Position numbers and translations under genes: made by a program
Shown: one piece after another, positions 1 through 16,517 of the stretch
Layout: each line of letters starts with the position of its first letter
How positions within the stretch are numbered: position 1 is the first letter of the stretch
NCBI RefSeq assembly: GCF_006345805.1
Contig: NW_021825084.1
Span: 1-16,517, forward strand
Direction: 5' to 3'
Origin: Octopus sinensis
Taxonomy: Eukaryota
Length of the DNA stretch: 16,517 bases
Notes under the pieces: generated by a model
The model's database searches: none
The model's input: only the letters and a program-made list of their open reading frames with translations
Told to the model about the DNA's origin: nothing

Positions 1-402
1 CAGCGGTGACAATCACCTTTTGTCGATGTGAAGTGGGTCCCCAAGCCTAAAAAGATTGCAGCCACGAGCGAACCTACATCGACCTCTAGTGGGGTTTCTC
101 CTACCTCACCTTGAACGTAGGTCTTCCAAGGTATTTTTGTAGGAGAACCACTTCGTTTTCAGAGGGATTGTTGAACCACACCATTTGAACCACACCACCA
201 TTATCGCAAATCTTTTGCCCTTGGAAAGGTTTACAAAATCTTGCCAGATGGGCCTCAGATTCTTTTCCACATGCTCCTTCTCCGCCATGTCTGATCTTTT
301 ATTTTTAATGGACACAGTTTTAAATACCACCAACCATTCTCCTGGATGGTATACGAGTCAATTCGCAAGGAGGGATCGGTTTGATTTCATGCCCTACAAT
401 TT
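1..402. repeat. Copy A of a segment duplicated at ~2263-2664 (body of the minus-strand hammerhead-bearing element; its hammerhead falls just outside the window)
   Basis: Near-identical sequence, giving the same 75-aa and ~75-aa spurious ORFs in both copies. Alignment ends at gccctacaattt. Confidence 0.95.
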
Positions 403-607
403 ACGTTTGTTTACTACGCGCTAAGATTTTTATATTCCATTCATATTTTAAAGACGCTGTTTTACGCGGCGCTAATATTTTTATATGTTCGTTTCCATGG
501 TAACGCAATTTTGTTTTTGTAATAAAACGGATAAAGTTATTCACTTCAAAATTGATACTGATTAGAAGGATGTATATTTTTCTCCTTTGTTAATCTTGTT
601 ACTTATG

Positions 608-2007
608 ATAATCTGATTTCTATGGAGTATTTTATATATCGTATTATGTGTAGAGATGTTGTTTTCTTTTGTATGTTTATGTATGTGTGAATTTGTGTGC
701 GTGTGCGTATTTGATTGTATCGAGTTTTGTACGTATTATTTGTATGTGTGAGTGTGTATATGGTTATGTTTGTGGGTGTGTGTATATATGTGTGTGTATA
801 TATGTGTGTGTATATATGTGTGTGTATTTATGTGTATTGTGTAACGGGTTGTATCTTTATATTTATACTTGTATGTATGGATTTTATTTATCATGATTAT
901 TTTACTAAGAATTTTTTGTATGTAGGTATGGGTGTGTATGTATGTTAGAGTGTATAAGTGTAAGTGTAGATGTGGGAGTGTATGAGTGCTATGTATTGGG
1001 TGTGATTATTTATGCACTTTATATAGTAAGTTTTGAATGTGCGTGTGATTGCACTCGTCTGCGTGTAACACACTCTTTTATATATATATTAATATATATG
1101 AGTTTTCGTTTTTCATGGTCGTTTTATTAAAGTTTGTTTGTATCGGGACTTGTACGTATGTATATGTATGTGTGAGTGTGTATATGATTATGTTTGTGGG
1201 TGTATATTTATAAATGTGTGTGTATTTGTGTGTATTGTGTTAGGGTTTGTATAGTTATATTTATACTTGAATGTATGGATTTCATTTCCATTCATAATTT
1301 TTTTAAATGTTTGATATCCACGTGCTAAGAATTGTTCGGTTTTCTTTTGAGTGTTTATGTATGTGTGAAAATGTGTGTGTGTGTGTGTGATTGTTTGCGT
1401 AATTTATTTATATGTATGGGTGTGGGTGTTTATATATTGGTATATATCGTGTTCTGTATGTATGTGTATGTATATGTATGTGTGAGCGGGTATATGTATA
1501 TTGTTTTATGAATTAGTGTTGTATGTGTGTGTGAGGAAGTATGAATAAGTAATGTGTTGAGTGTATGAGCATGTATGTGTATATATAGTTTTATTTTTGT
1601 TTTTTGTTTTTTGTTTTTAGGTTTGTTTTTGTTTTTTGCTTGTTGTTTTTGGTTTTTGTACATTTTTAAATATGAGAATTTTTATAATAGGTTTTTATAT
1701 TCATTGTTTATAGGGTTAATTTTAGATTATTTTAGATTATATATTGATTATATATAGATTATATATAGATTATATATAGATTATAGTTTTTATTTCTTTC
1801 ATTGATATTTTATAATTTTATTGTTTTATTATATTAAGTTATTTAAATTATATTTTAAATATTGCTATTCTTAGATCGAAAATCCCCCTGAAGATTGTCG
1901 GAGCAGACATGAAACATTTGTAGTGGCGGTTTATTTCTTTATATTAAAATTTTATGTATTGATTAAGTCTTTCCTTGTTTGGTTTTAAAATAGTGTTTTG
2001 TCTCGAA
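608..2007 (+). repeat. Copy A of a ~1.4 kb TG-rich low-complexity block ending in a hammerhead plus tail
   Basis: Colinear with 3192-4545 from ataatctgattt to gtctcgaatta. Differences are mostly 1-bp indels. Confidence 0.9.
1884..1926 (+). ncRNA. Duplicate of the 4419-4460 hammerhead with a helix I mismatch
   Basis: CCCC-CUGAAGA-U-UGUC-GGAGCA-GACA-U-GAAAC-AUUU-GU-A-GUGG. Confidence 0.55.
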
Positions 2008-2008
2008 T

Positions 2009-2100
<92 letters not shown>

Positions 2101-2135
2101 GATATATATATTATATATATATTATTAGATATATA
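2008..2135. repeat. (TA)n microsatellite
   Basis: Read directly from the sequence. Confidence 0.95.
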
Positions 2136-2935
2136 CCGTGAAGTATATTTGCCACCTAAATGTGGGTAACCATTAAGGTGGAAACTACTGTAGCTTGTAA
2201 CCCCAGGAAGGTTCCTTGACGTGATATACACGAACCCGGGTTTCGGAGTATTGACCCGTCATCAGCGTGTGACAATCACCTTTTGTCGATGTGAAGTGGG
2301 TTCCCAAGCCTAAAAGATTGCGGCCACGAGCGAACCTACATCGACCTCTAGTGGGGTTTCTCCTACCTCACCTTGAACGTAGGTCTTCCAAGGTATTTTT
2401 GTAGGAGAACCACTTCGTTTTCAGAGGGATTGTTGAACCACACCATTTGAACCACACCACCATTATCGCAAATCTTTTGCCCTTGGAAAGGTTTACAAAA
2501 TCTTGCCAGATGGGCCTCAGATTCTTTTCCACATGCTCCTTGTACGCCATGTCTGATCTTTTATTTTTAATGGACACAGTTTTAAATACCACCAACCATT
2601 CTCCTGGATGGTATACAAGTCAATTCGCAAGGATGGATCGGTTTGATTTCATGCCCTACAATTTGTAGTAAACCTTTAAATTTATCGAGTCCTTTCCTTT
2701 CGATTACCACATCTTCCTTGGTGACACTGGTTACTGCCGCAAAATTGTTAACACTTTGGTGTGGTTCTCTGGGCCGTGTAAAGATGCAAGCACCATAAGT
2801 AAGTTCAATTCTAGAACCATTTGTGTAGTGGACATGAACTGGTCTGTACCGGTGTGTAGGAAAAAGCCTGGAGGCTCTGAATGTATAATAACTGGATGTA
2901 GAATATTTGAATAGACGTGGAATAGATATAGAATT
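2136..2935 (-). mobile_element. Probable Penelope-like element remnant (3' terminal repeat with hammerhead) between microsatellites
   Basis: GC-richer block bounded by (TA)n and (TACA)/(CA)n and containing the 2228-2270 hammerhead. I recognised no RT or GIY-YIG motif, so the class rests only on the ribozyme. Confidence 0.5.
2228..2270 (-). ncRNA. Minimal type-I hammerhead ribozyme (Penelope-like-element type)
   Basis: Minus strand reads ACACG-CUGAUGA-C-GGGUCAAUACUCC-GAAAC-CCGG-GU-U-CGUGU. Helix I is 5 bp (ACACG/CGUGU), the core boxes are intact, helix III is the palindrome ACCCGGGU, and the cleavage triplet is GUU. Confidence 0.8.
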
Positions 2936-3043
2936 TCTATATATGCATACATACACATATACATACATATGTATATGTGTATGTATACATACACACACAC
3001 ACGCACATCGTTAGCCACTACACACCTTTTTTCTCTCCTTGTT

Positions 3044-3079
3044 TTTTCTGTAGAAGAGCGTAGGCTCGAAACATAAAAG
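3044..3079 (+). ncRNA. Variant or degenerate hammerhead-like motif
   Basis: UUU-CUGUAGA-A-GAGC-GUAG-GCUC-GAAAC-AU-A-AAAG. Helix II is perfect, but the core reads CUGUAGA and helix III is almost absent. Confidence 0.35.
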
Positions 3080-3191
3080 ACTTTTTCTATTCCTGAGCGT
3101 TATACTAATACACCTTGTTTGTTTTGTACACCACCTGTCTTCGTCTTTTGTTTTTTCGTAAACTCCCCACCCCACCCCCATATAAATATAT

Positions 3192-4544
3192 ATAATCTGA
3201 TTTCTTATGGAGTATTATATATCGTATTATGTGTAGAGATGTTGTTTTCTTTTGTATGTTTATGTATGTGTGAATTTGTGTGCGTGTGCGTATTTGATTG
3301 TATCGAGTTTTGTACGTATTATTTGTATGTGTGAGTGTTATAAGGTTATGTTTGTGGGTGTGTGTATATATGTGTGGTATTTATGTGTATTGTGTAATGG
3401 GTTGTATCTTTATTTTATACTTGTATGTATGGATTTTATTTATCATGATTATTTTACTAAGAATTTTTGTATGTAGGTATGGTGTGTATGTATGTGTGAG
3501 AGTGTACAAGTGAAGTGTAGATGTGGGAGTGTATGAGTGCTATGTAATTGGGTGTGATTATTTATGCACTTGTATATATGTAGTTTGAATGTGCGTGTGA
3601 TTGCACCCGTCTGCGTGTACACACTCTTTTATATATTATATATTATATATGAGTTTTCGTTTTTCATGGTCGTTTTATTAATTTGTTTGTATCGGACTTG
3701 TACGTATGTATATGTATGTGTGAGTGTGTATATGGTTATGTTTGTGGGTGTTGTATATATGTGTTGTGTATTTGTGTGTATTGTGTTAGGGTTTGTATAG
3801 TTATATTTATTACTTGAATGTATGGATTTCATTTCCATTCATAATTTTTTAAAAATGTTTGATATCCACGTGCTAAGATTGTTCGGTTTTCTTTTGAGTG
3901 TTTATGTATGTGTGAAAATGTGTGTGTGTGTGTGTGTGTGATTGTTTTCGTAATTTATTTATCTGTATGTGTGTGGTGTTTATATATTGGTATATATCGT
4001 GTTCTGTATGTATGTGTATGTATATGTATGTGTGGAGCGGGTATATGTATATTGTTTATGAATTGAGTGTTGTATGTGTGTGTGAGGAAGTATGAATAAG
4101 TAATGTGTTGAGTGTATGAGCATGTATGTGTATATATAGTTTATTTTTGTTTTTTGTTTTTAGGTTTTGGTTTTTGTTTTTTTGCTTGTTGGTTTTTGGT
4201 TTTTGTACATTTTTAAATGAGAACTTTTATAATAGGGTTTTATTTCAATTGTTTATAGGTTAATTTTAGATTATTTTAGATTATATATTGATTATATATA
4301 GATTACATATAGATTATATTTTTATTTTTTTTACATTCTTCATGATAATTTTTATGTTTTATTATTTTAAATTATTTTAAATTATATTTTAAAATATTGC
4401 TATTTTTAGATCGAAAATCCACCTGAAGATTGTCGAGCAGACATGAAACATTTGTAGTGGCGGTTTATTTAATTTATATTAAAATTTTATGTATTGATTA
4501 AGTCTTTCCTTGTTTGGTTTTAAAATAGTGGTTTTGTCTCGAAT

Positions 4545-4545
<1 letters not shown>
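3192..4545 (+). repeat. Copy B of the ~1.4 kb TG-rich block
   Basis: Colinear with 608-2007. Confidence 0.9.
4419..4460 (+). ncRNA. Minimal type-I hammerhead ribozyme
   Basis: CCAC-CUGAAGA-U-UGUC-GAGCA-GACA-U-GAAAC-AUUU-GU-A-GUGG. Helix I is CCAC/GUGG, helix II is UGUC/GACA with a U-U at its base, and the triplet is GUA. Confidence 0.65.

Positions 4546-4583
<38 letters not shown>
4546..4583. repeat. (TA)n microsatellite
   Basis: Read directly from the sequence. Confidence 0.95.
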
Positions 4584-4587
<4 letters not shown>

Positions 4588-7933: not shown

Positions 7934-8264
7934 ATAACAACAACAATAATAATAATAATAATAAAATAATATAATAATAATAATAATAATAATAGGTGTT
8001 GAAGAAATATTTGTGATCACCTCAGTTAGCACTCCATGTAATGAACAGAGTGTCTTTTGAAGAATATAATAATCCACATGGGATGAGATATATCACGTAA
8101 TATGCACAAACTGTATATCCAAAGTTATTTGCCAGTTGACAGACTGGAACATTGCACAGAGAGTTCAACACAAGTTGTCTTGAGATCCGATGTGAGACGA
8201 TTATTCCACAAATTCACTGATGAATCCCCATTACTTGACTGATCGATTATGCGTATAAAACATT

Positions 8265-8673
8265 ACTCTCTCTTTCTCTCTTTTACTTGTTTCAGTCATT
8301 TGACTGCGGCCATGCTGGAGCACCGCCTTTTAGTCGAGCAAATCGACCCCGGGACTTATTCTTTGTAAGCCAGTACTTATTCTATCGGCTCTTATGCCGA
8401 ACCGCTAAGTGACGGGGACGCAAACACACCACCATCGGTTGTCAAGCAATGCTAGGGGGACAAACACAGACACACAAACACACACACATACATACATATA
8501 TACATATATACGACAAGCTTCTTTCTGTTTCCGTCTACCAAATCCACTCACGAGGCATTGGTCGGCCCGGGGCTATAGCAGAAGACACTTGCCCAAGATG
8601 CCACGCAGTGGGACTGAACCCGGAACCATGTGGTTGGTAAGCAAGCTACTTACCACACAGCCACTCCTATGCC
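8265..8673 (-). mobile_element. tRNA-derived SINE of an abundant octopus-type family, with internal TG/TA microsatellite
   Basis: Head GGCATAGGAGTGGCTGTGTGGTAAG..GGTTCAGTCCC, then CTTGGGCAAGTGTCTT. 3' end is GCTCCAGCATGGCCGCAGTCAAATGACTGAAACAAGTAAAAG(AG)n. Confidence 0.85.
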
Positions 8674-8750
8674 TATGTGTGACTTGGGTGCATTTACTCA
8701 TTTTCAAAATACACATAAGCAAATATATAGTTCTGTAAGAATATAATTCT

Positions 8751-9374: not shown

Positions 9375-10227
9375 ATATATATATATATATATTTATATAT
9401 ATCTGTATATGTATAGTATGATGGACGGATAGATAAAGATATAGTAGCAGAGTTTATAGATCTAAACAACGACGGTACTCAGTTGGTGGTCACATATTTC
9501 AATTGACGATTTTCATACTACATCTGTCCGTGTAGTATTGGTTATAATGATAGTAGTGGTATCCGAAGCAGTAGTAGTAAAAATAGTGGTGGCCGATGTG
9601 TTGGTTGTGGTGGTTGTAGCAGCGATGGAGGTGGTTGGACAAGTGATGGCGTTTGTGCGGGTAGCTGTGGTCATTATAGTGATGGTTGACGTTTTGGTGG
9701 TAGTCGTTGCTGTGGTTGTGACTTGTGGTTTTGTGGTGGTAATTATGATGGTATTGTTTATGGTCGGGGATAACTCTCAGGTATCTGACCTCCCTCTGTT
9801 TCAAGAAGGAACGGCACATCCCTTTTGCTACTGTTACGGCTCTTTGTTTATATCGTTATTGTAGATCTGTCGTTGAAAACCACTTCAATCAATCCAAGAA
9901 CTACAAATGTCCAGTTTACATTTCAAACATATCCAAACCAAATCACTGTTATAGCAGAAGTTCCACGATGTGGCAGAAATCTGATACTATGGGGTGTTCA
10001 GATCCACCCAAGCTGATGATTCCTCCCCTATTTCATACTGGACTTTAAAATCGTATTTTTAACATTCATGTTTTCGTATTTTGTTATTGATTTTTCTGTT
10101 TTTGATTTTTTATAAATTTCTAACCCTTACATATAACTACATTCACTTCATCCGATCACTATCGATGGCCACTTGCAACGGCATCCATTGGCCATTACTA
10201 ACTACCTTCCCTTGACCACTGACAATA

Positions 10228-13200
10228 TCAGAGAATCCACCACACACCCAACATTATCACTATCAATGCCATACAACCCACCATGGGCCAGAAGTGTTCT
10301 TCCTTTTCTAGAAATCTAGCAAAACCTTCAAGTCTTTTACCATTTATTCTCAGTTTCACAGCAAGAAAATCAGCTAATTTACCAACTCTCTTGGCTCCAA
10401 TTTCAAGCACTTCCAGTTGATTTGCAAGCAATTTTGGTACATCACCATCATTTTCTTCTATTTCATTGTTGTCATTTACCAGTCTAACACCAGTTTCTCT
10501 GATTTTACAACCCAGCTTTGCCATTCTATTACCATACATTATCAATTCCCTACTACAAAATCTTCTTATGCTCCGACGAACCCATCCTAATATACCGCCC
10601 TCCTGTGGCTGTTCACTGCCTTTTCCTTTTATACTATCAAACAGTATCAGTATAGCACCCAACCTACCTAACCCAAATGCATAAAACGACAAAACTACAC
10701 TACCGATCTTTCTCAATACTTTATCAAACAGATTGAGTGGACGTGCGGTGTACCTCAATAGAGCCAAAAGCCATTTTATTAGCTTCTCAATCATTTTTAG
10801 TAGTTGAATAACGTATATTTTTGAATGATTAAAGGACTTTTTCAATGCATTAAAAACCCATTCCAGTGCAGCACCAAGCGATTCCAATAGTGTAACAATG
10901 CCTCTTATAACATTCTGGAAAAGCCATCCTAATGCGCCAGCAACCCATTGCCCTATACTAAAAAGCAACTTTCCCAGTGCGGAATGGGCAATCCATTCCA
11001 CTATACTAATAACCCATCCCACTACTTTACTAACACCCCAAATCACTGCTCTAGAAACCAATCCTACAATGCTGCTAACAATAAACCCCAGTCCGTAACC
11101 AATCCACTCAACTACACTGCCAACTAACCCTACTACACTACTAACTAGTCCCACTACTCTATTAACAACCCATCCCACTCCGTTAGCAATGAATCCCACT
11201 ACACTAGCAATGCTTTCCACTACACTAGAAAGAAGCTTTCCCACTACACTATTAGCAACCCACCCCACTGCACTACCAATAATTCCAACTATACTACTAA
11301 CAACCAAACCCAACCCCCTACCAACCCGATCCGCTACATCACCAATAATTCCAACTATACTACTAACAACCAAACCCAACCCCCTACCAACCCGATCCGC
11401 TACATCACCAATAATTCCAACTATACTACTGGCAACCAATCCCATTCCATTACCAATCCATTTTAATCTACTAATAACCTTTTCTTTAAATCGCTAACAA
11501 AGCCTAGACTGTTACGACTCTCTCTCAATATACTACTGAACCGATCCATTCCAAACCTAATCCATTCTAGTTTATTAACAAGCCATGCTATTTTAATAAC
11601 ACCACATTGCATGACACCATTAGTAATTGTTTTCACTCTATTTGCTAACTTATTCATTTCATTACCAAGTGATTTCAGTGCACTACTACCAATCATTCCA
11701 AGTCCATTAGCAACATATTTTAATCCCTCATCAGTCAATTCCATTGCGCCACTAACCGCCACTCCAAGTCCATTAGCAACCTTTCTTACTCCATTACCAG
11801 CCAATTCCATTGAACCACTAGCCGCCCATCCAAGTCCATTAGCAACCTTTCTTACTCCATTACCAGCCAATTCCACTGAACCACTAGCCGCCCATCCAAG
11901 TCCATTAGCAAACTTTCTTACTCCATTACCAACCAATTCCATTGAACCACTAGCCGCCCATCCAAGTCCATTAGCAACCTTTCTTACTCCATTACTAGCC
12001 AATTCCACTGAACCACCTGCAGCCCGTCCAAGTCCATTAGCAACATTTCTTACTACATTACTAGCCAAATCCACTGAACCACTAGCAGCCCGTCCAAGTC
12101 CATTAGCAACATTTCTTATTCCATTACCAGCCAATTCCACTGAACCACTAGCAGCCCGTCCAAGTCCATTAGCAACCTTTCTTATTCCATTACCAGCCAA
12201 TTCCACTGAACCACCTGCAGCCCGTCCAAGTACATTAGCAACATTTCTTATTCCATTACCAGCCAATTCCACTGAACCACCTGCAGCCCGTCCAAGTCCA
12301 TTAGCAACATTTCTTATTCCATTCCCAGCCAATTCCACTGAACCACCTGCAGCCCGTCCAAGTCCATTAGCAACATTTCTTATTCCATTACTAGCCAATT
12401 CCACTGAACCACCTGCAGCCCGTCCAAGTCCATTAGCAACATTTCTTATTCCATTACCAGCCAATTCCACTGAACCACCTGCAGCCCGTCCAAGTCCATT
12501 AGCAACATTTCTTATTCCATTACCAGCCAATTCCACTGAACCACCTGCAGCCCGTCCAAGTCCATTAGCAACATTTCTTATTCCATTACTAGCCAATTCC
12601 ACTGAACCACCTGCAGCCCGTCCAAGTCCATTAGCAACATTTCTTACTCCATTACTAGCCAATTCCACTGAACCACCTGCCGCCCATCCAAGTCCATTAG
12701 CAACATTTCTTACTCCATTACCAGCCAATTCCACTGAACCACCTGCAGCCCGTCCAAGTCCATTAGCAACATTTCTTATTCCATTACCAGCCAATTCCAC
12801 TGAACCACCTGCAGCCCGTCCAAGTCCATTAGCAACATTTCTTATTCCATTACCAGCCAATTCCACTGAACCACTGCAGCCGTCCAAGTCCATTAGCAAC
12901 ATTTCTTATTCCATTACCAGCCAATTCCACTGAACCACCTGCAGCCCGTCCAAGTCCATTAGCAACATTTCTTATTCCATTACTAGCCAATTCCACTGAA
13001 CCACCTGCAGCCCGTCCAAGTCCATTAGCAACATTTCTTACTCCATTACCAGCCAATTCCATTGAACCACCTGCTGCCCGTCCAAGTCCATTTGCAACAT
13101 TTCTTATTCCATTCCCAGCCAATTCCATTGAACCACCTGCTGCCCGTCCAAGTCCATTTGCAACATTTCTTATTCCATTCCCAGCCAATCCTATTGAACC

Positions 13201-14827
13201 ACCAGCAGCCCATCCAAGTCCATTAGCAACATTTCTTATTCCATTACCAGCCAATTCCACTGAACCACCTGCAGCCCGTCCAAGTCCATTAGCAACATTT
13301 CTTATTCCATTACTAGCCAATTCCACTGAACCACCTGCAACCCGTCCAAGTCCATTAGCAACATTTCTTACTCCATTACCAGCCAATTCCATTGAACCAC
13401 CCGCTGCCCATCCAAGTCCATTTGCAACATTTCTTACTCCATTCCCAGCCAATCCTATTGAACCACCAGCAGCCCATCCAAGTCCATTAGCAACATTTCT
13501 TACTCCATTCCCAGCCAATCCTATTGAACCACCAGCAGCCCATCCAAGTCCATTAGCAACATTTCTTACTCCATTCCCAGCCAATCCTATTGAACCACCA
13601 GCAGCCCATCCAAGTCCATTAGCAACATTTCTTCCTCTTTTACTCATCCATCCCATGACATTATTACCAAACCATCCAAAACTACCATCGCTTCCATTTA
13701 CTTTACTCTGCCCCCTATCCACATTACAAATTCCTCCCTCTACCCTCGTCTTTCCTCCCTTTACCTTACCATGACCACCATCCACACTACTATTCCCTGT
13801 TTTTACTCTATTTTCTCCTTTATCATCCCTACTTTCCTCTTCCTCTGCATTACCACACCGTTTCTTTACTTTTTCACGCCCTCTATCTACAATACCATTC
13901 CTTATCTCTATCGTACCATGCGCTCCCTCTTCCCTAGCATCCCCTCCCTCTTCCCTAGCTTCCCCTCCTTCTTCCCTAGCTTCCCCTCCCTCTTCCCTAG
14001 CTTCCCCTCCCTCTACCCTAGCTTCCTCTCCCTCTTCGCTAGCTTCCCCTCCCTCTTCCCTAGCTTCCCCTCCCTCTTCGCTAACTTCCCCTCCCTCTTC
14101 CCTAGCTTTCCCTCCCTCTTCCCTAGCTTCCCCTCCCTCTTCCCAACCCTCCCCTACATCTAAGATACCATCCCCTCCCTCTACATTATCATCTCCTCCT
14201 TCTACTGTACCAACACCACCCGATACAATAGAACCCCTTCCATCTACCCTAGCAGCTCCTCCCATTCTATTGCCACGCCCTCCCTCTACAATTGCATCCA
14301 GTCTATGATAGCATCCCCACCTAATTTCTTCTATTCCATAAAACCTTCCCTCTAATCCACCTTGCATTTCCCACTTATATGCAATAGACTGGAGCTGTGG
14401 ACCATCTGGGATACTCCGTAGCATGCAAAACGCTTCGCGTACTTCGTAGTCTGCTTCAATAATTCTTCCTTCTATTCTGTTACCAATATGGCTGTGCCAA
14501 GCAATTGGTAATGGGTTCCATATAGACGTCAATAAAAATCCTCCTACCCGACCATTCCCTACCCGTACACCAGCAAACATTCCTCCCCATATAAGAACTC
14601 TTCCTTCTGTTCCTTCACCAGTACATCTCCGCCATAAGATAGGCAGACGAAGAAATATAAGATCATTTGACTCTTCTACCATTAACCATAACATACCAAA
14701 CCTTTCCAATTCTTCACCAACACCACCACCACCACCATCACGACCACCGCCATATCCACCTTGGTCGATGCTGTCCATGTAAATATTTTCACTTAAAGCT
14801 TCTTCAATATATGTCGCGGAGCGCCCC
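10228..14827 (-). CDS. Giant terminal exon of an uncharacterised repeat protein (7-aa repeats, 22-aa hendecad repeats, C-terminal TM tail), interrupted by two frameshifts
   Basis: ORFs 12850-14778, 11463-12902 and 10228-11445 overlap or abut and carry the same 22-aa motif. The first and last are in the same frame. The break at ~12871-12885 is one repeat unit lacking two C's (ccactgcagccgtcc vs ccacctgcagcccgtcc). The break at ~11484-11490 needs one extra base. The frame stays open upstream of ATG 14778 to an acceptor TTTTGTTATAATTCTTCTACAG|G, with the exon starting at 14827. Unit differences are synonymous (GGT/GGG, GCT/GCA) or mostly conservative (I/V, G/S, V/M/I) on this strand. Confidence 0.85.
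11270..11460 (-). repeat. Second 66-bp coding repeat, ~3 units (DRVGRGLGLVVSSIVGIIGDVA)
   Basis: ccaataattccaactatactact recurs three times at 66-nt spacing. Confidence 0.9.
11787..13632 (-). repeat. Coding minisatellite: 28 near-perfect 66-bp units (RNVANGLG[R/W]AAGGSVELAGNG[I/V]); two further degenerate units extend to ~11655
   Basis: Period of 66 measured directly (ttccactgaa at 12531 and 12597). Units were counted from the translations: 28x66-2 = 1846 nt, matching the coordinates. Confidence 0.95.
13924..14144 (-). repeat. 21-bp coding tandem repeat, ~10 units (EEGGEAR)
   Basis: ccctcttccctagcttcccct is repeated, translating to EEGGEAR, EEGGKAR, EEGGEVS and similar. Confidence 0.95.
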
Positions 14828-15084
14828 CTGTAGAAGAATTATAACAAAACGGAAATAAGTAAATACATAAAGCCACTAATGGAGTCTCTAAAAAAACAAG
14901 GAATATCCCTCAAGGCACAGTTCTTCAATAACGAGCAGGTCAAAGTAGTTAGTGTAGTCTAAGATATCCTATGCCAACATATTGTGAACAGTGTCTTGGG
15001 ATATGTAATCGATTTAAAGTTTTCCAAATTGAATCCATAAGAATATGGAATCAATGTGTCAATAAAATTCCAACTTATTCTCAC

Positions 15085-15477: not shown

Positions 15478-15572
15478 GCATACATACATGCATACATACA
15501 TACATACATACATACATACATACATACATACATACATACATACATACATACATACAAACTTACATACATACA
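15478..15572. repeat. (TACA)n microsatellite
   Basis: Read directly from the sequence. Confidence 0.95.
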
Positions 15573-15717
15573 TGCATGCCTAGATGCGGGCTGATATAGA
15601 TGTATACACACGTTTTGTCAACAAGTGAGATATATTATTCGTGATGAAACGCAGTAAGTGGCTTGGTCCCAGTTCGAACATGCATCAAGCATATTCAGAC
15701 TGATAATAACATAGCAA

Positions 15718-15727
15718 TACATATATG

Positions 15728-15780
<53 letters not shown>

Positions 15781-15917
15781 GCACACACACATGCTTACGC
15801 ACATATATACTTGCGCATATCTGCATACACATATATATATATGTGTGTGTGTGTATATATATATATACATATACATACATACATATTCAAACACTACACA
15901 CACATATATGCATACAT
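15718..15917. repeat. Compound (CA)n/(TA)n/(TG)n microsatellite
   Basis: Read directly from the sequence. Confidence 0.9.
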
Positions 15918-16261
15918 CTCATTCTCGCTCACAACATCATAAGCGGAAAGTGTAACCTCTCGAAAGACCTGTTCTTCACTCCTGCTCCAGAGCGTCGGCT
16001 GCAGGGTCGCTCAGAAAAGCTCTATCTGCGACGATTTCATCTCAATCGAAGGAGGGGGGCTTTCTCCGTCCGGGTTGCGGATCCGTGGAATAAGCTGCCG
16101 GACGAGATAGTGAAGATGCCGACGACCGCTCGGTTCAAAGTCTCCCTTGACCACAAATGGCCTGAACTCTTTGCATGAACACCACCCTGTACATAACTCC
16201 ATGCCCCCATACATGACCTTGCTTTTTGCTTTTTGAGCCAAAAAATTAACTTAACTTAACT
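15918..16261 (+). mobile_element. 5'-truncated CR1/L2-group LINE 3' end, intronic and antisense to the gene
   Basis: LILAHNIISG...KLYLRRFHLNRRRGAFSVRVADPWNKLPDEIV..FKVSLD matches the ORF2 C-terminal FFSxRVVxxWNxLP..FKxxLD motif. Stop at 16178, short 3' UTR, (TTAAC)3 tail, possible ATACAT target duplication. Confidence 0.85.
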
Positions 16262-16345
16262 ATACATATAGTTGTACTGAGTATCTCGTCGTTGCGGGTT
16301 AAGTTTCACATTAGAATACCTTGGCGGACTTTCGGAGAAGCTTAC

Positions 16346-16398
16346 CCACATAAGTTGGATTTCTCCGTTTTGAAGGATTTACAATTTCTTTTTTCCAT
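16346..16398 (-). CDS. Predicted first coding exon (MEKRNCKSFKTEKSNLC-G)
   Basis: ATG at 16398, with another in-frame ATG at 16449. There are 17 codons plus GG, then donor |GTAAGC at 16345. It ends in phase 2, matching the acceptor at 15162 (GG+G = Gly). No transcript evidence is available. Confidence 0.45.
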
Positions 16399-16517
16399 CA
16401 CACACTTGCAAATGATGTAGAGAATCTTTTTATAAAAAACGTTTTCCATAAATTTATGAAATCTCCCTCTCTCCCCTTCTGGGCCGATTCATTTTATTTT
16501 ATTTAATATTTTGCACT

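Follow-up and report, generated by a model that had tools for sequence, protein, structure and literature searches.

Exchangeable apolipoproteins are built from 22-residue repeats punctuated by proline, and in their class A helices the basic residues lie at the interface of the polar and nonpolar faces. For perilipin-4 (Plin4) an amphipathic helix of 968 residues has been tabulated (hydrophobic moment 0.257, hydrophobic fraction 0.35, aromatics 0.002, charges 0.15), described as the only one to exceed all others in length by an order of magnitude (PMC5889406). According to the same source, Plin4 is unfolded in solution, needs its length for targeting to droplets, and binds better and less selectively when made more hydrophobic. 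Its glycines have been suggested to make the layer spaghetti-like rather than rod-shaped (PMC8064757). CsmC, a bacterial protein, lies in the lipid-monolayer envelope of the chlorosome (PMC12214013). Here we analyze a giant repeat gene of Octopus sinensis. The window is an entire contig of 16.5 kb (NW_021825084.1, 16,517 nucleotides) from a 2.7-Gb animal genome; the gene occupies the minus strand from 14778 to 10228 and encodes 1,517 residues once skipped codons are counted. A stretch of about 950 residues, singled out in a preliminary description as a continuous amphipathic helix of 11-residue periodicity, is the repeat core of this predicted protein. We tentatively favor the reading that such chains, unfolded on their own, adopt 3-11 helices at the surface of lipids and resemble Plin4 by convergence.

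The periodicity expected from the preliminary description was found. Fourier analysis of hydrophobicity gives a peak at 3.664 residues for the entire stretch and at 3.668 for the block of 22-residue repeats (22-mers), where the amplitude is 0.365 at 11/3 versus 0.015 at 3.6 and 0.005 at 3.5; a second spectral peak of this block lies at 2.44. Since any 22-mer array peaks at some harmonic of 22, residues were permuted within the unit as a control, which gave p = 0.001 for the commonest unit (Fauchere-Pliska and Eisenberg scales) and 0.002 for the block column mean. The eight hydrophobic or small positions named earlier all fall within -31 to +67 degrees of the hydrophobic face. The region is also free of proline as described, with 0 in residues 383-1331 (949 codons, 945 readable) and none anywhere between residues 128 and 1347. 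The later repeat, however, does not stay in the same register. The face keeps a constant phase of 20-32 degrees from residue 383 to about 1064 (some 680 residues), turns by about 145 degrees through residues 1065-1108, stands at 162-174 degrees at 1109-1174 and drifts after 1175; the later repeat has an 11/3 period of its own (p = 0.002), and the Val/Ile/Trp block that contains it peaks at 3.71, the 11/3 amplitude of its non-repeat part giving p = 0.08. One unbroken hendecad register is excluded, and a single long helix with skips is possible.

The continuity of the stretch holds only after repair. In the window as assembled three consecutive long minus-strand frames (14778-12850, 12902-11463 and 11445-10228) split it, which had gone unmentioned, and the gene is interrupted by three one-base gaps at about 12873, 12879 and 11478. 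We checked the frame against public short-read contigs of runs X1, X3, X5 and X8 aligned to the window. At 12879 all of the depth carries an extra base in four out of four runs (three samples), and every spanning contig among those listed has two gaps; the contigs over 12873-12879 represent collapsed units, so that the short form is unseen, yet the intactness of that very unit is not thereby proven. At 11478 one base is inserted by X1, X3 and X5 (3/3 covering runs; bridging contigs of 334-393 nt), X8 having no coverage. Because the short-read contigs are without the gaps, the first two breaks are likely assembly errors, and the third is one. Errors of the same type occur in the contig's noisy overlap with scaffold C29 (47 gap openings per kb), and the frame is kept in bridging contigs from two species labels. 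At 11732, 11922 and 13680, X3 and X8 contigs match the repeat and then continue into non-window sequence, possibly further copies missing from the assembly. X5/X8 joints and loose ends at 11271-11456 suggest that in other individuals the second 22-mer has additional or variant units.

The case for an amphipathic helix rests mainly on comparison with a second gene. A repeat search found a paralogue from C29:10660111 onward at 40-53% identity (reciprocal; DNA identity of 62-73% in long matches), whose one-base breaks were taken as errors without a check against reads. It passes from an acidic head of 45 residues through about 19 anchored 29-mers to about 112 Gly/Leu/Ser/Ile/Phe/Trp 22-mers over 7.4 kb. 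These 22-mers are near-identical and more hydrophobic, 77 out of 102 anchor spacings equal 66, and the 29-mer aligns as the window's 22-mer with a further seven residues, equal to two turns of helix. The paralogue has diverged to 45% identity with the window gene, contains 0 prolines in 1,715 residues examined, and rises in hydrophobicity from the acidic head to the end (Spearman 0.85 over 37 windows). Column permutation of the three large repeat blocks of both genes gave peaks at 22/6, 29/8 and 22/6 (p = 0.002, 0.008 and 0.004), and the helical-range amplitude exceeds the beta-range amplitude in all three, narrowly in paralogue block A. An amphipathic helix is suggested because both genes keep the helical period, the absence of proline and the gradient despite changed sequence and unit number. 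The window's linker also matches the paralogue's transition zone (35% identity, expect value (E) 7e-8), and the short aromatic junction that closes the heptad block resembles by eye the one preceding the paralogue repeats (blastp there was not significant). By blastp, neither the head, nor the heptad block, nor the C-terminal 200 residues of the window gene matched either of the two paralogue frames compared.

The two genes are neighbors. The window's last kilobase overlaps C29 just past a scaffold gap at 89% identity, with 47 gap openings vs 21 mismatches, and this is its best genome match (93% vs at most 78% for the other 38 scored repeat copies). Because the post-gap sequence is matched so much better than other copies, the contig fits into the gap, which places the genes head-to-head about 18 kb apart. 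Their acceptors, nearby 5' sequence and 3' tracts are alike at 71-81% (predicted acceptors, 71% over 63 nt). Between the genes, C29:10645700-10657200 holds inverted duplicates of 0.2-1.8 kb at 81-91%, a trace of inverted duplication or a misassembly; the first exons of the pair may lie there. A third family member was not found in 220 kb of C29 (G-skew screen; among the open reading frames listed) or in further searches. Among the matches listed, those on C28, C16 and C12 were rejected as simple satellites of 7-residue type. Kilobase arrays of short units with several frames open were seen at C28:14677000-14694000, C16:38344000-38349600, C12:12238000-12239450 and C29:10615500-10617400 (satellites or unrecognized repeat proteins).

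The reported shift from Gly/Ala/Asn to Val/Ile/Trp is borne out, in steps and not smoothly. Mean hydrophobicity climbs from 0.25 in the 22-mer block through 0.41 in the linker to 0.70 in the Val/Ile/Trp block (Spearman 0.48 over 42 windows), and the Trp-bearing units at the start exceed the middle ones; the three natural repeat units of the pair are stepped at 0.25, 0.40 and 0.77. The 66-bp unit is present in 29.4 copies at 11697-13633 by tandem repeat call, read on the minus strand. Glycine makes up 23-30% of the repeats, and charges are few. The 22-mer block (moment 0.34-0.38, hydrophobic fraction 0.43, aromatic 0.01-0.02, charged 0.10-0.14), not the C-terminal block, falls in moment and composition among the values tabulated for Plin4, Plin3, alpha-synuclein and apoA-I (Table 1 of PMC5889406). 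The protein continues past the limits first noted, with a heptad block and a 190-residue head before them and a Leu/Lys helix, a charged stretch and a hydrophobic helix after them (Table 1). The acidic Gly/Glu heptad block is likely disordered. The head, whose other five frames carry 5-13 stops while the coding frame is open (chance 3e-7), matched no known family in profile and homologue searches. Region 10294..10842 has one copy in the genome. A 19-residue Kyte-Doolittle maximum of 2.28 falls at residues 1495-1517, where a hydrophobic helix, predicted to be a tail anchor, stands at the very C-terminus; other hydrophobic windows also exist in the protein. Single-sequence AlphaFold2 modeled the C-terminal 416 residues as helix throughout (mean predicted local distance difference test score (pLDDT) 54, predicted template modeling score (pTM) 0.22), the Val/Ile/Trp block being all-helix at pLDDT mostly 50-70. 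The helical model of the C-terminal part speaks for the lipid-surface reading; for the 22-mer block structure prediction gives beta structure, the outcome that the preliminary description had named as refuting, possibly as an artefact.

On the lipid-surface reading, the chain would be unfolded in solution and would form a long, kinked, two-faced 3-11 helix on an intracellular lipid surface, with the lipid droplet or a gamete or pigment organelle membrane as candidates. The predicted membrane-anchoring C-terminal tail would hold the protein there. The hydrophobic C-terminal block would bind first and firmly, the weak 22-mer block would then spread over extra oil or loosely packed membrane through many weak contacts, and the acidic head would face the cytosol. 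An intracellular location is suggested by the absence of a signal peptide by eye in the window gene and in the paralogue, which has an in-frame stop directly before its ATG and therefore no N-terminal extension.

The likeness to Plin4 lies in a very long proline-free tandem array of an 11-mer multiple, with a weak moment, Gly/Val/Ala richness, few aromatics, net positive charge and 29 units. The octopus pair differs in having 22- and 29-mers rather than 33-mers, Asn/Arg rather than Thr/Lys, and no PAT domain; the window protein is richer in glycine and has an acidic head, a hydrophobicity gradient and a C-terminal membrane-type helix, and the paralogue's repeats extend over about 3,100 residues, roughly threefold the 968 of Plin4. 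On the C-terminal four-helix bundle of Plin4 the single-sequence model is of low confidence (pTM 0.22); the window chain ends in a hydrophobic helix. The perilipin/PAT domain PF03036 had no match in the scanned frames of either gene, any upstream exon of the window gene lying outside the scan, and the genome's one above-cut-off perilipin match is a PAT exon on another scaffold (C12:52428040-52428246). Since the gene has no perilipin domain and the genome's own perilipin is elsewhere, the likeness is probably convergent, as the preliminary description had suggested. With alpha-synuclein and the apolipoproteins the protein has in common amphipathic 11/22-mer repeats of similar moment, but it is ten times longer, has no proline punctuation (apoA-I has seven) and carries its basic residues off the interface (class A comparison: 0 proline, Arg at 133/-162 degrees). 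Block A of the paralogue exceeds the Pfam cut-off for CsmC (PF11098; 41.1 bits vs 26.3) and the window gene has no CsmC match in the profile scan; CsmC is a family of 139 positions from chlorosome-bearing bacteria, and the low-complexity likeness, which counts toward the lipid-surface reading, is a pattern analogy, not kinship.

Phage tape-measure proteins are a possible further parallel, with their long helical chain, 11/18-type spacing, Trp/Phe markers and hydrophobic stretches. This bears on the idea that the repeats form a hendecad helical bundle with a small-residue (Ala/Gly-zipper) core, giving a long membrane-anchored rod or tether whose length would matter, which we consider unlikely. 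Small residues do occupy the core positions, with small-x-x-x-small runs in the unit; 22 = 11+11 and 29 = 11+18 match the tape-measure 11/18 pattern (PMC5099701); the Trp gaps of the window gene include 22, 22, 22 and 29, others being 7, 8, 16, 30 and 66. Weak tape-measure/PHROG profile matches reach E 1.6e-5 for the window gene and 1e-9 for the paralogue (low-complexity sequence, no shuffle control), and the heptad model TIGR03057 scores above cut-off; we read these matches and that to CsmC as one helical pattern. Against a bundle, glycine amounts to 23-30%, serine and glycine stand in core positions, the register is broken, repeat number differs about 3-fold between the paralogues, and tblastn against 50,697 phage records gave nothing. 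Complex prediction with three copies of residues 891-1100 scored 0.00, the fold of the chain itself being uncertain in at least one run. Unlike a tape-measure gene, this is an animal gene behind a predicted splice acceptor, with animal repeats all round and no phage tail module, and the resemblance appears to be one of pattern, not of phage origin.

High glycine content and few charges disfavor a free-standing helix, and because the repeats hold 23-28% Gly and few charges such a helix is unlikely. The same features, together with the broken register and the very different repeat number of the paralogue, tell against the ruler of about 140 nm that had been proposed, and a rigid one is unlikely. 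Of the two functions put forward before, the lipid coat is the better supported, by moment and composition, and the length-setting tether is weak.

Several observations weigh against the lipid-surface reading. The Trp-bearing end units are weakly amphipathic (p = 0.21/0.05 and 0.12/0.009, Fauchere-Pliska/Eisenberg), and Arg and Glu lie away from the interface, at 133 to 166 degrees on the far side of the polar face. Four more small indel rows inside the repeats (11367, 11369, 13401 and 13978; short contigs, one run each) may reflect wrongly placed units or true alleles. The first ATG lies 49 nt past the predicted acceptor and the frame is open between them, so an upstream exon may add residues to the window gene, including a signal peptide; the terminus of an X1 contig coincides exactly with the predicted exon start at 14827, which is suggestive only.

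The AlphaFold2 model of the 22-mer block stands on the same side. Run without an alignment, it gives a three-sided beta-helix (pLDDT about 75-87 for the first 290 residues, pTM 0.67) which aligns to natural autotransporter, tailspike, antifreeze and curli solenoids (VIA-align Z 20-26, root mean square deviation mostly 3-4 A, identity at most 14%). The block could then form a structural fiber, either as a parallel beta-helix or as a functional amyloid of curli type, each unit making one turn and Asn residues stacking in ladders, which we regard as quite unlikely. Its 22-residue Gly/Asn-rich unit (13% Asn, 25% Gly), the spectral peak at 2.44 and a weak NosD beta-helix match (E 0.003, below cut-off) fit such a fold. 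However, AlphaFold2 returned solenoids for 36 out of 50 and 32 out of 78 random perfect repeats (PMC11795689), and because of this bias the model may be an artefact. Its mean pLDDT is 72.6, the five models span 73-52, and Foldseek found no match at E 0.001 (TM-score at most 0.25). Strand-type alternation is not the main signal, the helical-range amplitude is the larger one in all three blocks, and the paralogue, as the one homologue, keeps one of three Asn columns (the others being His/Tyr and Ser/Arg) in a unit of 29. Amyloid is formed by the Plin4 repeat as well, to a lesser degree when lipid droplets are present, so beta and helix states need not exclude each other.

The hydrophobic end of the protein raises a different difficulty. 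The Val/Ile/Trp block exceeds the natural helices of the Plin4 table (PMC5889406) in hydrophobicity, and its overlapping 19-residue Kyte-Doolittle windows of 1.6-2.05 (residues 1131-1264; also 1361-1381) could cross a membrane. The hydrophobic half might then insert into or perturb bilayers (multi-pass, hairpin or pore-like), for instance in gamete or defense cells, the 22-mer block serving as spacer. We find this improbable: the windows retain a clear polar face (moment 0.25-0.49), and profile scans gave no match to a toxin or pore family. Excess nonsynonymous change is typical of reproductive and immune proteins. Differences were counted in the short-read contigs from the 40 of 66 single-letter rows listed, after 7 flank rows were dropped and 11 collapsed-array rows set apart (9 nonsynonymous, 2 silent). 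Among the scored differences 21 out of 22 are nonsynonymous (expected silent share 0.23-0.28, P = 0.007-0.025), falling to P = 0.03-0.07 without five differences common to X1, which are possibly errors of the window; a deep, loose-ended contig is the source of two rows, and these may represent another locus. These numbers hint at diversifying selection.

There is no sign of purifying selection on residues, which also speaks against the lipid-surface reading, and the ratio of nonsynonymous to synonymous variation (pN/pS) among repeat units is about 1.1. Such values, the antisense frame that is also open across the array, the blank protein searches, the indel rows and the degenerate units past the paralogue's stop would suit a minisatellite-derived frame without selected protein function, or a decaying gene. 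We hold this to be highly improbable, since the unique N- and C-terminal parts each have a single open frame (chance 3e-7 and 6e-13), contigs from two species labels keep the frame, and two diverged paralogues keep period, absent proline, gradient and acceptor. The antisense Pro/Ser/Thr frame itself was rejected, being open across the arrays only, with stops in the unique parts.

Beyond close kin of this genome, the searches made turned up no relatives. Word-index searches were blank, whether made with the C-terminal part against candidates of 729-2080 aa, with the N-terminal part (356-1136 aa) or with a three-row repeat alignment (185-1225 aa). For the C-terminal 290 residues phmmer gave 0 matches against 1.84 billion representatives; ESM Atlas gave nothing usable for the head and C-terminal frame rows all under 0.8; PDB sequences gave nothing below E 0.7; and none of 183 pattern matches in metagenome contigs was confirmed. 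These blanks are weak evidence of novelty, the eukaryote share of the searched sets being uncertain, and fast amino-acid change may explain them. No literature description of the gene or of a cephalopod 11-mer coat protein was found, subscription journals lying largely outside the search, and no RNA dataset on record carries the gene. Run X8, guessed to be RNA, covers 20 of 30 bins and was not taken as evidence of expression. The genes are apparently an undescribed pair of giant proline-free repeat genes, and the lipid mechanism is proposed from sequence pattern.

Table 1. Features of the window gene and of its scaffold context (positions in the window unless prefixed)
Feature	Position	Strand	Residues	Remarks
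Contig/scaffold overlap	15561..16517	+		G000:C29:10642543-10643528, first kilobase past a 100-N gap (C29:10642443-10642542)
Putative 3' splice acceptor	14828..14860	-		pyrimidine tract, AG at 14829-14828; coding exon would begin at 14827
N-terminal head, Gly/Arg-rich	14206..14778	-	1-191	5 of the protein's 9 prolines
Acidic Gly/Glu heptad block	13633..14205	-	192-382	21-bp array 13906-14212; net charge -24
22-residue repeat x 29, Gly/Ala/Asn/Val/Leu	11718..13632	-	383-1021	period 3.668; net charge +27
Frame breaks 1 and 2	12873..12879	-		two one-base gaps in a single 64-bp unit of the 66-bp array
Linker	11481..11717	-	1022-1100	amphipathic, period ~3.56; hydrophobic face turns here
Frame break 3	11477..11478	-		one-base gap; bridging contigs
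Val/Ile/Trp/Gly block	10843..11478	-	1102-1313	mean hydrophobicity 0.70, period 3.71
Second 22-mer, 2.6 copies, inside Val/Ile/Trp/Gly block	11275-11444	-		tandem repeat call
Leu/Lys amphipathic helix	within 10294..10842	-	1314-1383	period 3.57
Charged helical stretch	within 10294..10842	-	1396-1496	model and composition
C-terminal uncharged 21-residue helix (predicted tail anchor) and stop	10228..10293	-		Kyte-Doolittle and model
3' tract common with paralogue's 3' flank	9516..9617	-		72% over 103 nt, E 1e-8
Paralogue	C29:10660111-10669668			~3,200 codons, many one-base breaks, degenerate units after first in-frame stop

Elsewhere in the window, an A/C-rich tract on the coding strand at 9500-9860, 400-700 nt past the stop, is readable as Thr-rich or His/Tyr/Asn-rich and has a similar counterpart after the paralogue; its Thr-rich and His-rich frames were inspected and treated as 3' flank. 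Positions 1-4587 contain a tandem duplicate (1-402 with 2263-2664 at 98%; 608-2052 with 3192-4587 at 91%, indel-rich), either a real duplication or a noisy contig end. A remnant at 15920-16250, with further copies on C29, we take to resemble the 3' end of a LINE (long interspersed element) reverse transcriptase, and an octopus SINE (short interspersed element) is presumably present at 8260-8680.

The gene pair was recovered despite frame errors and a scaffold gap that hide both members from annotation, and it provides a natural test case for the solenoid bias of AlphaFold2. Its three repeat units, of the same geometry and stepped hydrophobicity, would form a ready series in which length, hydrophobicity and charge could be set against binding to oil or bilayer; the series also bears on how such repeats avoid or use amyloid. 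A bolder proposal, which we think doubtful, is that the pair represents an independently evolved octopus family of giant graded helices of up to about 3,100 residues (3x perilipin-4), with lipid affinity stepped from acidic head to anchor, which would zip on and off with surface tension and, from the fast amino-acid change, might serve a gamete or defense organelle. If the lipid-surface reading is true, it would mean a second, unrelated origin of a Plin4-like giant helix, in a mollusc.

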